Positions 6,001 through 63,036 of a DNA stretch of 64,000 bases are shown piece after piece. Position 1 is the stretch's first letter; every line of letters begins with the position of its first letter. The stretch is from a virus (lineage: Duplodnaviria; Caudoviricetes). A model generated the notes under the pieces. That model searched no databases and was not told the origin of the DNA. It saw only the letters and a list, made by a program, of their open reading frames with translations. Location: positions 35,852 to 99,851 of IMG/VR virus record IMGVR_UViG_3300020049_010822; one strand, given 5' to 3'. The translations under genes were made by a program, and so were the position numbers.

Positions 6001-7658
6001 TTCTCTCCATACTGCATAAGATAAGGAGTGTTGTTATCAGAAGTGATGCCTCCAGTCTTCCAGTCTAAAAGAGTCATATCTCCATTCGCGTGCTGAACAA
6101 TACCATCCGCAGTAGTAGCAATAGGCTTGCCATTTGTGTCTACAAGTAGATCAGATTTCAAAATAATCTCTGATGCTATTCGATCTTGTTTAGCTTTAGG
6201 AATACCTAGAGTACCATCTACATCTATCTTAAGACCCGCCACCTTGATAATGTCTGAAAGATTCTCTACAAAGTTTTTAAGATTAGGATGGGTTTCTAAA
6301 GTGTAGAAGGACTCCCCGTATTGCTTTGCGTATTGTAGTGCAATCTCTTTAGCTTGTTTTCTAGTAGCTACATCTGTTTCGAGTAGGTATTGCATAAAGG
6401 CGTGCACCATCTTACCAAATACTCTACCCTTACCTAAGATTAATTCTTCAAGCTCTACAACTTCATTAAATGTCTTTGGAACACCTTCAAGTAAAACAGT
6501 TTCAGTAATTTGTTCTGCTTTCTTGTTCTTAACATCTATACCTCTAGAAGCGAAGAAGTCCCTAGCTTTAGCAGTGGCATAAGATTCTTTAAAACGACGT
6601 GCCTTAGTAGAGAAAGCTCCATGCTCCTTATCTCCTACAAAAACAGTAAGACGTGTAGCTACTTCCTTTCCATCTAAATCCTTATAATAATTAGAATCAT
6701 CGTCCGTAACCAGTTTTGGGTTATCGGACCTAATTTTTTCTATATAATCAATAGGCTTCTCTTTCTTTCTAGATATCTTATTCTCTATGTCGTCTATTAG
6801 AATATCTACTTTCTTATAAGCAGAAGTAAGCGTATTTTCTTTAGATAGATCTAATCCTTTCTCCGCTACTTTAAAAAGATCAGCAAGTGTGGTAGCCGAG
6901 TCTATAGTAACGTTAGAAGATATGTTTAATATTCTACGAATAAACTCAAAGAACTGTTGTAGATAAGAACTAAACGTTCTCTTTGTAGATTGAGATTCTA
7001 AGTAATCAGTGACTACCTCTTCTTCATCTTCTCTGCGATCTCCTAGATTCCTAGCTTGTTCTAATATTGATTGGTATAGAACATTATTTCTAATCCGAAG
7101 CGTTCTAACGAAAGGGTGAAAGTATTCGTGGATTGGAGTACTCTCTGTAGCAAAAGCTGTATTGATATAGACTATCTTATTACCCCCATCGTTTACATAT
7201 CTACCTGCCCATTTTTGATTAGGTTCATGTATTACTCTAAAGGGAATGTTAAACTTCTTGGATAAAACATTTAACATCTTATCCATAGAGGTAGGAATAG
7301 AATCGGCATTAATATAATCTGCAGAAGCCTCCGGAAACAATAGCATATTACCTGCTGGAGTTTCTACTAAATCTCCTTTAAGTGTTGCCTCAATACCTGC
7401 AAACCTTAATGCAAATGCCTCTACCATACTTGGGATAGAATTATCTCCTCCCGTTATAGGATTTAGATAAGTAGCATATTTAATCGAATAGTGCTCTGGA
7501 TTTTCTGCTATTGCTAATTTTAATGCTAGCTTGATCTGCGTATTGGTTTGCGCTGTTATAGTATCAGATTTAAAATAGTGTATAGTAGCTAAAGTTTCAT
7601 TTTGATACTGCGCCATCAAGTCCTTTCAGAGTTGACTAGATTTTAGTGGGCATTGCAT
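3087..7658 (-). CDS. giant virion cargo / polyvalent protein (~1523 aa) with zincin-like HExxH and PD-(D/E)xK nuclease domains; TGA=Trp at codon 11
   Basis: Start MQCPLKSSQL[TGA 7626-7628]KDLMAQ is in frame with track ORF 3087..7619; PIHEYFH; GKMVHAF...TADGIV...LLDWKTG nuclease motifs; hydrophobic segment FAALIALTSSLFTFSFVGLGVTLVA. Confidence 0.85.
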
Positions 7659-7661
7659 ATT

Positions 7662-10600
7662 TTAACATTTTATAGTTGTTTCGTATATCTTTAAGAAGTC
7701 TTCTAGTGACATATTATCAGATTGGATAAGATTAAAAACTTCAGGTCCAAATTCTATTAAATTTAAAAATTTGTCTTGAATTTCAGTAACAAAGAAATAC
7801 TTACCATTACCAGCACTAACAAAGTCTCCAGCTTGTATATTTTTATTTCTCATCTCCCCTTTTATTTTCGCAGTGTGGGTATGAGTAGTATTAATAGACG
7901 GAATTATTTCAGCCCCATTATTAAACACCCAAGAGAGCAGTTCTTGTTCCTTAAGAGCAGTCTTTAATGCTCCTATCTTTTCATTCATCTCTTCCTCCCT
8001 TTCTCTAAATGGTTCTAAGAAACCTATCTTATCTCTAAGCGCCTTAGCGATTTTATTTCTAAGGGTAGGATTACTATTTAAAGGATTTAAGATGCTGCCA
8101 TCTACATAATAGTTTAGATTCTTATCAAGCTTCTCAACTGCAGATAATATATGGTTAGTAATCCCAGTTAATTCTTCCATTGTAGCATTTGGAGGCAGTT
8201 CAGCTATGGGTAATTTTATAGCCGTGCTTTCATCTGTACCCTCGTTAGAAAGAAGTCTGGCTCTTTTATTTTTAAATTGTATATCTCTATACTCTTTTAA
8301 ATTACTAACAGTTACCACTGTACCAAGATTTTCGTTTAGAAACTTAGCCATAAAGTTCTTTAAATCTACTGCTTCATCTGTCTTAGTAATTGGAAAAGAA
8401 CCTTTATAAGTTAGAGCGTATACTATCTTATCTGGCAACTTTGAAACTTTATCCACAGCGTAGTATCTTATAGTATTAGCAGAGGCTGAACTTTTAGGAA
8501 AGGCATATATTACTTGTCCTTTTTCAAACTCGTGAGTTCTATAATCAGTAGTTAGTTTACCTTGAATTATATTAGACGTATTTACTATGGGGTACTTTCC
8601 AGATTGAAGCGCCCCTAAATCTAAGGAAGCGTCTAGTTCTGAAGGCTCAAAATGATAAAATCTACTGCCAGAGTTTTCAGTTAATTTTGTATAGTATGAA
8701 AAAGGCGAGCCAGGTGTTTTTATTAACAAATAAATACTATCATCATACCTACGTAAAAACTTAGCACTAGTATCAGAGTAAGGTTTCTCGTACTTTAAAT
8801 CAAAGTATATATCAGTTCCATCTACATTATCAACACCAGCAAAAGATTCTTGAGTTCTGTCAGCTGTCTTTGTGCTTCTTTGTAAGACCGGTTTTAACTT
8901 AGTAGTTTTAGATACTAAAGAAGGATTATTCTTTAAAAACTGAAACATAAATCTATCCTTAAGTATTGCTAAGTTTAGATCTGTTTTAGATTCCCCCTTA
9001 GGTATTACACTATTTAATCTTTGGTCTAATGCTACCCCATATTTAACTACCCAGTGAGCCGGGAATATTAAAGCGAAGCCTGTCTTTTCGTAATACATGG
9101 CTTCTCCCATTAAGGCATACTTAAACAAATCTTGAGCTCAATCGGCACGAGTATATCCAGAAGATATCTCTGTAGAATCCTGCGTTAATTTCAAAAACGC
9201 ATCTCTAATCTCTTCTAATACTTCCTCATCATTAACTTTATCGCCTATAATCTGAAGTTTAGATAATCCATTATTCTCTATACTTGGTTCCAAAGCTCTA
9301 ACAAAAGAGTTAGTTTCTAGATCAGGAGAATCTATTAAAGTAATAGCTTTATTTACAAAGATTTGAGCCCAAGCTTCTTTGCCTCTTAGCATCTGAGAGG
9401 CCGTAGTATACTCTATCGTGTCTGGTATGTTAGTAGTGAAAGTCTTATTTTCTAATTCAAAAGTCAGATTAGAAGCTAAAAATTTAATAAGTTCCTTACT
9501 AACTATATCCACTTTCTCTAGCTCATCTGTTCCAGTATAAATATTAGCTTCTTTTAGAAGAGCCTTTATGAAGTTCTGAACTACAGGATTATACACAGCA
9601 AAACTGTTCTCAAGTATAGATTTAAGTTGTAATAAAGATTTGTAAGTAGCAAATACGTGTGGTATTCTTAGTATGGCTACATTACTAAACACACTGTTTG
9701 CTCGCTCAACAGTTCGATTAACTCCTCCTCTAAGAACCCTGTTTACAAAAGAGGCTCTAATAGAAGCAGAGAGAGTTCCAAAAAGCTTGCTGTTCTTTCC
9801 GCTTGTGGCTGTACTCACTTCTGCTTCAGCCATCTTATCAGCTTCTTCTGCGTTCTCTTCAAATTTAAGTTTATAATCTTCACTTTGAGTTTTGTAATTA
9901 TTCAGCAGTTCCGCCTTTACAGCCGCTTTAATATTAGACGATGTGTTTACTTCATCCCTAAATTGGTTATGTTTCTCAATCTTGTCGATTAAAGAATCCA
10001 CTTTCCATTTCTTATTCGGAAGACTTCTTAAAGCTCCAAATATTTGCGCGTATTCAAACAACTCTTCTCCCACAGGAATAATCTTATGTATAGAAGCCAT
10101 TACTACAGCATTGGATAACAAAGTAAGATCATCACTAGCTTTACCTACATAAATCTTATCTAAAATTTCTGTTTTAATATCTAGATTTTCTAGTACATCC
10201 ATCAACTTTCCTTCCTTTATATCGGATAGTATACTTGCCACACTGTTCTTGCCTGTATATTCTTTTAAAACTTCCGTTAAAGCTTCATCAGATAGAGCAG
10301 ATATAGACTTTAGTAAATCGTCTATATAATTTTCTTTTATAATTTTGGCGCTCCATCTAGAATTCTCATTTGCCTCCATTAGCAGCGGAGTCTTAAATAT
10401 TTTAGAGACTGTGTTAAGAGGTACCCCCATGCCTAACATAGTTAAATAGGTGTTAGCATTAACTCCAGTGATACCTAGAACAGATAACTTTTGTTCTTTT
10501 ACGTTATCTATGGCAAGGTTAATAACAGTATCAATAGTCTCGAAGTTGTTTATCTCTTTTCCATTAGGACTTAACTCCTTAATGGTAGTCCTTCTCATAG

Positions 10601-62126: not shown

Positions 62127-62483
62127 TTAAAGTATTGCTTCTATTAAAGTGTGTGGAACTGCGACATGTCCGTCAAAATCTAGGACAATAGCATTTTTTG
62201 TGAGGAAGAACTGATAGTTAGGAGACACAACCATCTGAGGTACGAATACTCGGTCACCTATCTTGAGGGGAGTGCCCTCCTTCTCTAGGAGAGAAGATGC
62301 AAGGGGAGAGATATTAGTTACTGTACCTTGAGCTATATACCGAACATTAGACTGTCTGGTATTCATTTTACCTCCATCTGATTCTACGAGAGTGTAATCA
62401 GGTACAACCACGCCAGAAGCTGTGATGGTATGATCCGGATGTGGATCTAGTTGAATTAGAATCTTATTACCTGTAAGTATCAT
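62127..62483 (-). CDS. groES: co-chaperonin GroES/Cpn10-like protein
   Basis: GNKILIQ...TASGVVVPD...QGTVTNIS...LKIGDRVF...IEAIL parallels GroES motifs. Confidence 0.7.
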   Translation of the reverse strand: MILTGNKILIQLDPHPDHTITASGVVVPDYTLVESDGGKMNTRQSNVRYIAQGTVTNISPLASSLLEKEGTPLKIGDRVFVPQMVVSPNYQFFLTKNAIVLDFDGHVAVPHTLIEAIL

Positions 62484-62689
62484 TACTGTGTGATTACGGT
62501 TGAAGCTGGAAGGAATGGTTCTAGTAGCTGGTTAATTGCCAGCGTAAGTTTCAGTTTTACTGGATCAGTCTCGGAAGGTAGAGAACCATACGCATCTAGT
62601 AACATCTTAAGAGAATCAAGGTGCATACGTTGTTGGAATGCAAGTTGTTGAGACTGGATCTGTGATTGTGGTGTAGCTTTTGTGCTCAT
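62483..62689 (-). CDS. hypothetical protein
   Basis: ATG at 62689 overlaps the TAA of the read-through HU-like gene. Confidence 0.55.
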   Translation of the reverse strand: MSTKATPQSQIQSQQLAFQQRMHLDSLKMLLDAYGSLPSETDPVKLKLTLAINQLLEPFLPASTVITQ

Positions 62690-63036
62690 TATTTTCAGTG
62701 TCAAGAACCAAATCGTTGCTTAAACTTCCTAGAATTGGAGTAAGCTTTAATCTGATGTCTAAATTTAAATAGATTAGATAATATTTTTTTATTAGTAGGA
62801 ACAGACTTTCCCTTTCGGATAGCCCTAACTAAGTTAATAGCTGCATTATGCGTCTTATTAGGAGTCATAGTAAACGACCCTAAGTCATCTAAACGAAATC
62901 CTACTGTAAAGAATTCTTTTTGATTACGTTTAATCTCATTAAATAAATGAGATACGACAGATTGCACTTGTTCGGTGGGAATATCAAGAGCTTTAGCTGT
63001 TTCCTTTACTAGTGGGTCGATACTGTAAGTTAACAT
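62689..63036 (-). CDS. HU/IHF-like DNA-binding protein (115 aa); two TGA=Trp near the C-terminus
   Basis: ETAKALDIPTEQVQSVV...FRLDDLGSF; ends TCT TGA CAC TGA AAA TAA(TG). Confidence 0.65.

Follow-up and report, generated by a model that had tools for sequence, protein, structure and literature searches.

Introduction

Recoding of TGA from stop to tryptophan (Trp) with suppressor tRNAs, mostly in late genes, is known in crAss-like gut phages, which switch codes over short phylogenetic distances (Yutin 2021, PMC7886860). A model of code change during infection was put forward by Borges 2021 (bioRxiv 10.1101/2021.08.26.457843), in which early genes follow the standard code, structural and lysis genes use the recoded codon, and replication genes are recoded to a variable degree. 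In that study a suppressor tRNA was detected in just 35% of code-4 phages, 26-71% of genes had in-frame stops, and gene families were tested for preference or avoidance of the recoded codon. The Mgcod report (bioRxiv 10.1101/2022.06.29.495998) describes block-wise dual coding, where one genome contains differently coded blocks. The present work concerns a window of 64,000 nt, the whole stretch of DNA analysed, which corresponds to bases 35852-99851 of one 99,851-bp virus contig (IMG/VR record IMGVR_UViG_3300020049_010822) and in which 16 in-frame TGA codons lie within minus-strand virion, packaging and lysis genes. Judging from alignments with relatives, UGA in these phage genes means Trp, a well-supported further example of a known phage trick.

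By its TerL, portal, capsid protein, GroEL homologue and giant virion proteins in crAss order, the phage is placed in the Crassvirales. The closest cultured phage is Cellulophaga phage phi14:2 (NC_021806), with TerL identity of 34.6% over 97% of the length. The hosts of the cultured relatives in the TerL search were all Bacteroidota (Cellulophaga, Flavobacterium, Bacteroides), and IMG/VR holds many uncultured relatives with TerL identities of 40-72%, the clade being represented there by several contigs of about 85-110 kb. Gene order matches that of phi14:2: TerL and portal come first, capsid and tail genes follow, and the giant virion proteins, one of which is the virion RNA polymerase, come last. 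GroEL adjoins TerL as it does there. Portal and capsid were assigned by PHROGs to phrog_6547 and phrog_11589, respectively. No terminal repeat of the contig was found.

The phage belongs to the same viral order as the gut phages of Yutin (PMC7886860). Like them it has TGA in frame in TerL and other virion genes, a suppressor tRNA, recoding of part of the genome, a labile code state and introns in conserved genes. It differs from them in that its nearest cultured phage is the marine phi14:2 and its kin are environmental IMG/VR contigs, that the replication module is recoded, and that the suppressor escaped ARAGORN. The share of late genes with in-frame stops, 13 of 42 (31%), falls within the range of Borges, whereas replication genes are standard in the crAss-like and Agate maps of that study and recoded here. 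Compared with the Mgcod cases, the switch lies within the plus-strand block instead of coinciding with the change of strand, and the low TGA density would make automatic detection hard. The phage is a case of late-gene opal recoding of an already described kind, in a new lineage. New here are the lineage, which extends TGA-to-Trp recoding to crAss-like phages near a marine Cellulophaga phage and their uncultured IMG/VR relatives, the recoded replication module, and a contrast between avoidance of TGA in capsid genes and its tolerance in TerL. On this contrast the Borges paper is silent, and the word "capsid" is absent from it (bioRxiv 10.1101/2021.08.26.457843).

Meaning of TGA in the virion block

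The minus-strand virion, packaging and lysis block (3087..63376) was annotated with PHROGs and by comparison with phi14:2. It contains 42 ORFs and 19,748 codons, among them 145 TGG and 16 in-frame TGA, so that most Trp is still TGG, as an earlier sequence-only reading of this DNA had noticed. All 16 TGA positions listed in that reading were confirmed as in-frame codons of minus-strand genes, each inside an ORF open under code 4, and a gene model built independently in this analysis recovered the same 16 in 13 real genes. Two other in-frame TGA, at 50222 and 60583, were discarded as artefacts, the former lying in an intron or N-terminal extension and the latter inside a tRNA gene. The stops of the 42 genes were 36 TAA and 6 TAG; TGA is internal only and never a stop. 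Gene calling under the two codes, which had been proposed as a check, gave 51 ORFs and a coding density of 94.8% with code 11, and 44 ORFs and 98.5% with code 4, which merges ORFs. Gene callers set to code 11 would truncate thirteen genes, among them TerL and the virion RNA-polymerase fusion.

Alignment of homologues at each TGA column was another check proposed at the outset. PHROGs had no family for the three giant proteins and many small ORFs. When IMG/VR was searched with single sequences, neither a 1000-aa piece of the giant gene nor the 443-aa gene gave a match. Relatives were reached via TerL instead: whole contigs were fetched, followed by a TerL profile scan of IMG/VR. Five relative contigs (35-85 kb) were stitched, other loci were added, and the codon aligned to each Trp codon of the window was read. 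At the 16 TGA columns, 37 of 61 non-redundant residues (61%) were Trp, spelled TGG in 26 cases and TGA in 11, with Tyr (9) and Phe (4) next in number. Trp made up 382 of 581 homologue residues (66%; 341 TGG, 41 TGA) at the 145 TGG columns, and the residue profiles of the two kinds of column did not differ (P = 0.48). Since Trp is about as frequent at the TGA columns as at the window's own TGG columns, TGA stands for Trp. Trp was the commonest or joint-commonest residue in relatives at 12 of the 16 columns; two of the others were aromatic (9138, Phe; 49309, Tyr) and two poorly conserved (19505, Leu/Ile in a linker; 49068).

The presumed suppressor tRNA

A limited suppressor had been supposed in the sequence-only reading, and a candidate is indeed present: a 73-nt tRNA gene with anticodon UCA and a Trp-type body at 60532..60604 on the minus strand (Rfam RF00005, 42.9 bits against a gathering score of 29), syntenic with the UCA tRNAs of relatives, which lie upstream of TerL. 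The anticodon loop reads CU-UCA-AA, and the gene does not encode a CCA end. In E. coli the Trp identity elements are G73, A1-U72, G2-C71, G3-C70 and the Trp-type anticodon arm; read from the sequence, the phage tRNA has the pairs A1-U72, G2-C71 and G3-C70, discriminator G73 and a Trp-type anticodon arm. A C34-to-U change lets a tRNA-Trp read UGA while it stays a substrate of tryptophanyl-tRNA synthetase, as in code-4 bacteria and laboratory opal suppressors. Unlike the tRNA-Trp(UCA) of code-4 bacteria, the tRNA here is phage-encoded and would act in a cell that keeps release factor 2 (RF2). It is presumed to be an opal suppressor charged with Trp.

The plain Trp-type UCA tRNA is common to the window and relatives L005 and G001, and a scan of IMG/VR with the tRNA sequence pattern returned just these three copies. 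Among them 11 of 21 stem pairs of the cloverleaf showed compensatory changes, and 95% of cells were paired in the three-copy alignment against 34-54% in slid controls. ARAGORN reported UCA tRNAs in 10 representative loci, 9 of them recoded. In the window and the whole genome it gave tRNA-Lys only and no suppressor, and a relaxed run with 194 calls, mainly spurious, missed the suppressor again. The case shows how low-density recoding together with a degenerate suppressor tRNA can escape detection. No phage release factor, tRNA synthetase or other translation factor was found with Pfam and PHROGs.

Relatives G002 (10731-10824, in L026) and G003 (5520-5617, in L031/L006) carry another UCA tRNA of 94-98 nt with a long variable arm whose terminal loop, GTCCAAA, duplicates the anticodon loop of normal tRNA-Trp (CCA), so two kinds of suppressor tRNA occupy one site in the clade. 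In the window the suppressor is flanked, within a 520-nt non-coding stretch, by two tRNA-like elements lacking a D arm (60704-60763 and 60455-60531, minus strand), each made of an acceptor stem, a single central hairpin and a T arm. The element at 60704-60763 scores 17.8 bits as tRNA in Rfam (E = 0.65), that at 60455-60531 has a fold z-score of -2.4, and both might be processing signals. Beside the suppressor tRNA of relatives ARAGORN also detected tmRNA-like elements (G001 48478-48758, also L012 2417-2697; L005 about 2700-2960; G002 11897-12220). Those of G001 and L005 have a common tag-like frame ending Tyr-Ala, behind which come a T arm and a CACCTCCAC end; no such element was found in the window's genome. 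A 132-nt tRNA-like gene lies on the plus strand 31.6 kb before the window (genome 4136-4267, L017; Rfam 46.6 bits). Its acceptor, D and T arms are perfect, 76 nt replace 15 anticodon-arm positions that Rfam skips, and its anticodon is uncertain.

Three coding regimes

Three coding regimes can be distinguished across the genome. The 31 early genes (genome 1-20.4 kb, plus strand) contain 93 TGG and no internal TGA, and 12 of them end in TGA, several as ATGA stop-start overlaps, so TGA in the early genes is a stop. At the tail of the plus-strand block, inside the window, one ORF (1447..1851) ends in TGA with TAA directly behind it (a read-through extension of 0 codons), an instance of a terminal TGA backed up by a second stop. 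The statement of the sequence-only reading that all genes end in TAA or TAG thus holds for the minus strand and fails for the early genes. The replication genes (20.4-38.9 kb, plus strand), which encode PolA, two helicases, a DnaB-like helicase, Sak4, a primase and an exonuclease, carry up to 25 in-frame TGA against 64 TGG, and 13 of the 17 TGA covered by homology align with Trp in G001. The range of recoding given earlier, 7626-62703, is accordingly right for the TGAs it lists and understates the extent of recoding. The difference between replication and late genes depends on the TGAs counted (P = 3e-4 if all 25 are included, 0.03 for the 17 covered, 0.14 for the 13 aligned to Trp), and recoding of the replication genes is no less than that of the late genes. 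Confinement of recoding to late genes, which is typical of such phages though not obligatory, was thus not found, and suppression is not purely a late licence, a point missed as long as the recoding of the replication genes had not been noticed. The code switches inside the plus-strand block, near genome position 20.4 kb, rather than where the strand changes. A host with the standard code and RF2 is probable from the TGA stops of the early genes and from the cultured relatives, which infect Bacteroidota.

Distribution of TGA among genes

TGA makes up 9.9% of the late Trp codons, whereas the A-ending codon accounts for 64-84% in five other purine-ending pairs. Because the TGA share lies far under that of comparable pairs, TGA is strongly avoided in the late genes. 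The claim of about one gating codon per gene found no support when the 16 TGA were placed at random among the 161 Trp codons of the late block: TGA was present in 13 genes against 11.4 ± 1.5 expected (P = 0.22), and the maximum per gene was 2 against a random mean of 3.0 (P = 0.27). With TGG as control, no bias was seen in the late block in relative position within the gene (P = 0.55) or in the base following the codon (P = 1). The first 50 codons held 5 of 16 TGA and 17 of 145 TGG (P = 0.047, not surviving multiple-test correction), and in the replication genes the position and following-base biases were marginal (P = 0.07). TGA and TGG swap at the same columns among relatives, and some relatives have no TGA in the same genes. 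Neither a fixed stop position nor a special context, as expected of programmed site-specific read-through, was observed.

As had been noted, each of the three giant genes (3087-7658, 7662-11183 and 12548-24544; 20.1 kb in total) has exactly one TGA. No TGA occurs in the portal gene, in either capsid-protein ORF, in the GroEL homologue or in the three genes for proteins of about 750-780 aa; GroEL and the second capsid ORF contain zero Trp codons, which limits the weight of their TGA-free state. The set that had been called "high-copy" comprises 37 Trp codons with 0 TGA (P = 0.012), a grouping picked after seeing the data. Avoidance of TGA in abundant proteins does hold at the level of the clade, with TerL being tolerant. 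In 52 non-redundant lineages, clustered at 95% TerL nucleotide identity, TerL had 99 TGA and 440 TGG, the portal 20 and 402, the capsid protein (two ORFs) 1 and 269, the gene at 45777-47150 1 and 113, and GroEL 0 and 24. In 21 lineages TGA use was higher in TerL than in the head genes taken together, in 2 the reverse held, and 19 were TGA-free ties (sign test, 7e-5). In the 28 recoded lineages TGA reached 34% in TerL and 0.6% in the major capsid protein, TerL being higher than the capsid protein in 21 of 21 untied lineages. This contrast is simple, testable evidence of costly UGA read-through, and suggests that expression level, besides timing, shapes the placement of the recoded codon. As 10 of the 12 Trp columns of TerL carry TGA in some lineage, its use there is diffuse and not tied to sites. 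The contrast within the clade fits better with weaker purifying selection in low-copy enzymes than with a placed gate.

Proposed mechanism and alternative explanations

Taking together the in-frame TGA codons, their Trp columns, the Trp-type UCA tRNA, the three regimes and the differences between gene classes in the clade, we consider it probable that TGA has two meanings in this phage, that Trp decoding by the phage tRNA competes with RF2, and that selection against the cost keeps TGA rare. In early genes TGA would be a stop read by host RF2, and in replication and virion genes a minority Trp codon. Its decoder would be the phage UCA tRNA with the tRNA-Trp body, presumably charged by the host tryptophanyl-tRNA synthetase and competing with RF2 at every UGA. 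Read-through is probably incomplete, so that each TGA would cost part of the full-length product and for this reason be kept rare, nearly absent from the most abundant proteins (capsid and other head-module proteins), and would drift upward in low-copy enzymes such as TerL, replication proteins and homing endonucleases. Roughly one TGA per gene would then be the chance outcome of a low codon frequency and not a gate. The charging of the tRNA with Trp, its competition with RF2, its less than full efficiency and the time at which it is expressed are the steps that we infer.

Several observations weigh against this explanation. A few replication genes seem to end in TGA with TAA or TAG 0-4 codons on, so that TGA in these genes may be read both ways, and the tRNA gene lies about 2.8 kb into the minus-strand block though the replication genes need the tRNA earlier. 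Its T loop is unusual (CTCGAAC, with C at position 54), in contrast to the canonical forms of L005 and G001, and its D loop lacks the GG pair, oddities that probably explain why ARAGORN missed it. Its acceptor stem, G73 and anticodon arm are shared by 120 bacterial tRNA-Trp(CCA) genes; the search for these fixed the anticodon as YCA, making the match partly circular, and it supports a canonical scaffold, not Trp exclusivity. As to the clade, a recoded lineage was partly defined by TGA in TerL, so that the contrast of TerL with the capsid protein is partly due to ascertainment; the comparisons are only partly corrected for shared ancestry, and protein copy numbers were inferred from homology to phi14:2 and crAss-type virions.

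A stronger version of the cost explanation, which we regard as doubtful, is that TGA use forms a graded cost scale tuned to expression timing and protein copy number, since TGA shares run from 0% in early genes and about 20-28% in replication genes to the TerL value, and are below 1% in the capsid protein (TerL and capsid protein in the 28 recoded lineages). If so, the TGA frequency of each gene would report how much truncated product that protein can afford, and the lone TGA past the acidic linker of the giant gene would set a fixed ratio between a 1679-aa product and the 3998-aa RNA-polymerase fusion. Recoding would then be a dosage device rather than a switch, and suppression efficiency could be estimated from genomes alone.

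The sequence-only reading had offered a selected design in which a limited suppressor licenses low-copy essential parts, a licensing that is essentially the Borges model. As selected gating, this would mean that selection keeps single TGAs in low-copy essential genes (TerL, RNA polymerase fusion, tail parts, holin), which are translated only after suppressor tRNA has built up. Packaging and lysis would thereby be timed, and codon 1680 of the giant gene would set the ratio of short product to fusion. At least one TGA is found in TerL in 26 of the 28 recoded lineages, the codon-27 column of TerL is TGA in five independent relatives, and TGA is shared more often at TGA than at TGG columns (11/37 vs 41/382, P = 0.003). 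TGA occurs in the holin and in homing endonucleases, in keeping with the published lysis-timing model, and the TGA at 19505 stands past an acidic linker and is followed by 215 codons that include no start. Such a gate nevertheless seems unlikely, given that the number of TGA genes and the per-gene maximum match random placement, that neither N-terminal nor following-base bias appears against TGG, that TGA is spread over most TerL Trp columns, and that replication genes are recoded too. Moreover, TerL is free of TGA in relatives G003 and L001, and the giant gene of G003 has Leu at the supposed hinge; even the 34% in TerL is less than the 64-84% expected with no selection, which fits weaker purifying selection. 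Scarcity of TGA could also mean an incipient reassignment, with a recently acquired suppressor and TGA accumulation just begun. This would suit the TGA share of merely 10% among late Trp codons and the nearest TerL relative, L001, which has no TGA in the sampled genes, and incipient recoding has published examples. The idea of an early stage, raised in the sequence-only reading, is however not supported, in view of relatives at TerL identities of 46-70%, which share the low TGA use, the syntenic UCA tRNA and late genes ending in TAA or TAG only (the first stops of late genes in all relatives were 103 TAA, 21 TAG and 5 TGA). The plain tRNA, common to L005 and G001 and with many compensatory changes, is old. 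On the TerL tree recoded and TGA-free lineages are interleaved, requiring at least 9-11 changes, with labels more clustered than in shuffles. Because diverged relatives have the recoded state too and lineages interleave, this state looks old and labile in the clade, and a recent beginning is very improbable.

Decoding of UGA by the host, through code 4 or a host suppressor that the phage mirrors, would agree with the finding of no phage release factor or synthetase. We hold it to be more improbable still, for the early genes with their TGA ends, ATGA overlaps and lack of internal TGA speak against it, as do the phage's own UCA tRNA and the cultured relatives, which infect Cellulophaga, Flavobacterium and Bacteroides. 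These Bacteroidota hosts use the standard code. That the TGAs are assembly errors or broken genes can practically be dismissed: 16 G-to-A errors solely on Trp-like columns are not credible, all frames are open, and TGA in the same columns of independent contigs from other samples makes sequencing error unlikely. 

Individual genes with in-frame TGA

The terminase large subunit (746 aa, 55331..57571, minus strand, as are all genes of this section) has TGA at 57491-57493 (codon 27) and 57332-57334 (codon 80), where 8 of 8 and 7 of 8 non-redundant relatives have Trp spelled TGG or TGA, and where phi14:2, cultured and annotated in the standard code, has TGG at both. The tail tubular (P22 gp4-like) homologue (239 aa, 33764..34483), which resembles phi14:2 g072, has TGA at 34418-34420 (codon 22), a column with Trp in four of four relatives, one of them spelled TGA. 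In the structural protein similar to phi14:2 g089 (240 aa, 47163..47885, phrog_15924) the column of TGA 47565-47567 (codon 107) is W in four relatives (one TGA), Y in two and Q in one. The virion structural protein of 1415 aa (29510..33757, phrog_15100) carries TGA at 30365-30367 (codon 1131; W, W, W and F in relatives) and 30290-30292 (codon 1156; F, W, W and A). In the 443-aa protein (36100..37431) TGA 36715-36717 (codon 239) is matched by W, V and Y in three relatives, with matches continuing through the column.

Four TGAs close to gene ends could have been real stops (45464, 62695, 62701) or could lie upstream of the true start (7626). These possibilities were rejected, the codons being accepted as sense because relatives show TGG or TGA there and the matches run through. 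In the 89-aa protein (45452..45721) TGA 45464-45466 stands four codons ahead of the TAA stop, and since its column is TGG in L001 and TGA in G004 it is sense and not a stop. The 115-aa protein (62689..63036) has TGA at 62701-62703 and 62695-62697, in its last four codons, and both columns are Trp, mainly TGG, in all relatives aligned there. The 1523-aa virion protein (3087..7658) has TGA 7626-7628 at codon 11, and its homologue in G001, aligned from residue 1, has TGA in that column too.

The 3998-aa giant protein (12548..24544) has a TGA at 19505-19507 (codon 1680), immediately preceded by an acidic linker, in which Asp or Glu make up 29 of 80 residues. Residues 42-730 resemble phi14:2 g067, and residues 3434-3974 match residues 755-1361 of the virion RNA polymerase g066; unlike here, where they form one frame, g067 and g066 are separate in phi14:2. 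The TGA was considered as the boundary of two such genes. In this column G003 has Leu and G002 has Ile, both relatives with fused ORFs and no stop, and a 1000-aa stretch spanning the TGA matches a stop-free open frame of 4101 aa in G003, the open frames of relatives being 4101 aa and 5473 aa long. Past the TGA there are 215 open codons with no ATG, GTG or TTG (P about 2e-6, at the background rate of TAA and TAG), a merge that chance would hardly produce. The two-gene reading was rejected because the frames of G003 and G002 are uninterrupted and no start occurs for 215 codons.

In the 1173-aa protein (7662..11183) the match to G001 is unbroken over residues 2-1173, and the column of TGA 9138-9140 (codon 682) is Phe in G001 and G002. 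For the holin (112 aa, 49141..49479, phrog_2359), the column of TGA 49309-49311 (codon 57) is Tyr in five relatives and Leu in one, and for the 87-aa ORF (48927..49190) that of TGA 49068-49070 (codon 41) is weakly conserved, with W, I, L and C. The LAGLIDADG homing endonuclease (248 aa, 11740..12486, phrog_11023) has TGA at 12358-12360 (codon 43), which is TGG in G005. Its gene is free-standing between virion genes, and the G005 homologue contains 3 TGA and 1 TGG.

Interruption of the capsid gene

The major capsid protein gene is split (49523-51825, minus strand). The ORF at 50899-51825 matches positions 4-295 of phrog_11589 and that at 49523-50203 positions 300-492, with an HNH endonuclease ORF (50217-50840) between them. 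Sub-threshold Rfam matches to group I introns occur at 50198-50442 (28 bits, E = 1.7e-4) and at 50637-50957. The capsid gene is uninterrupted in five relatives, and G003 and G004 have insertions elsewhere in the gene. Group I introns above the Rfam gathering score were found in relatives G005 and L013, the intron matches in relatives being at L036 14527-14752 and 16222-16322, L037 7357-7598 and L013 7055-7366.

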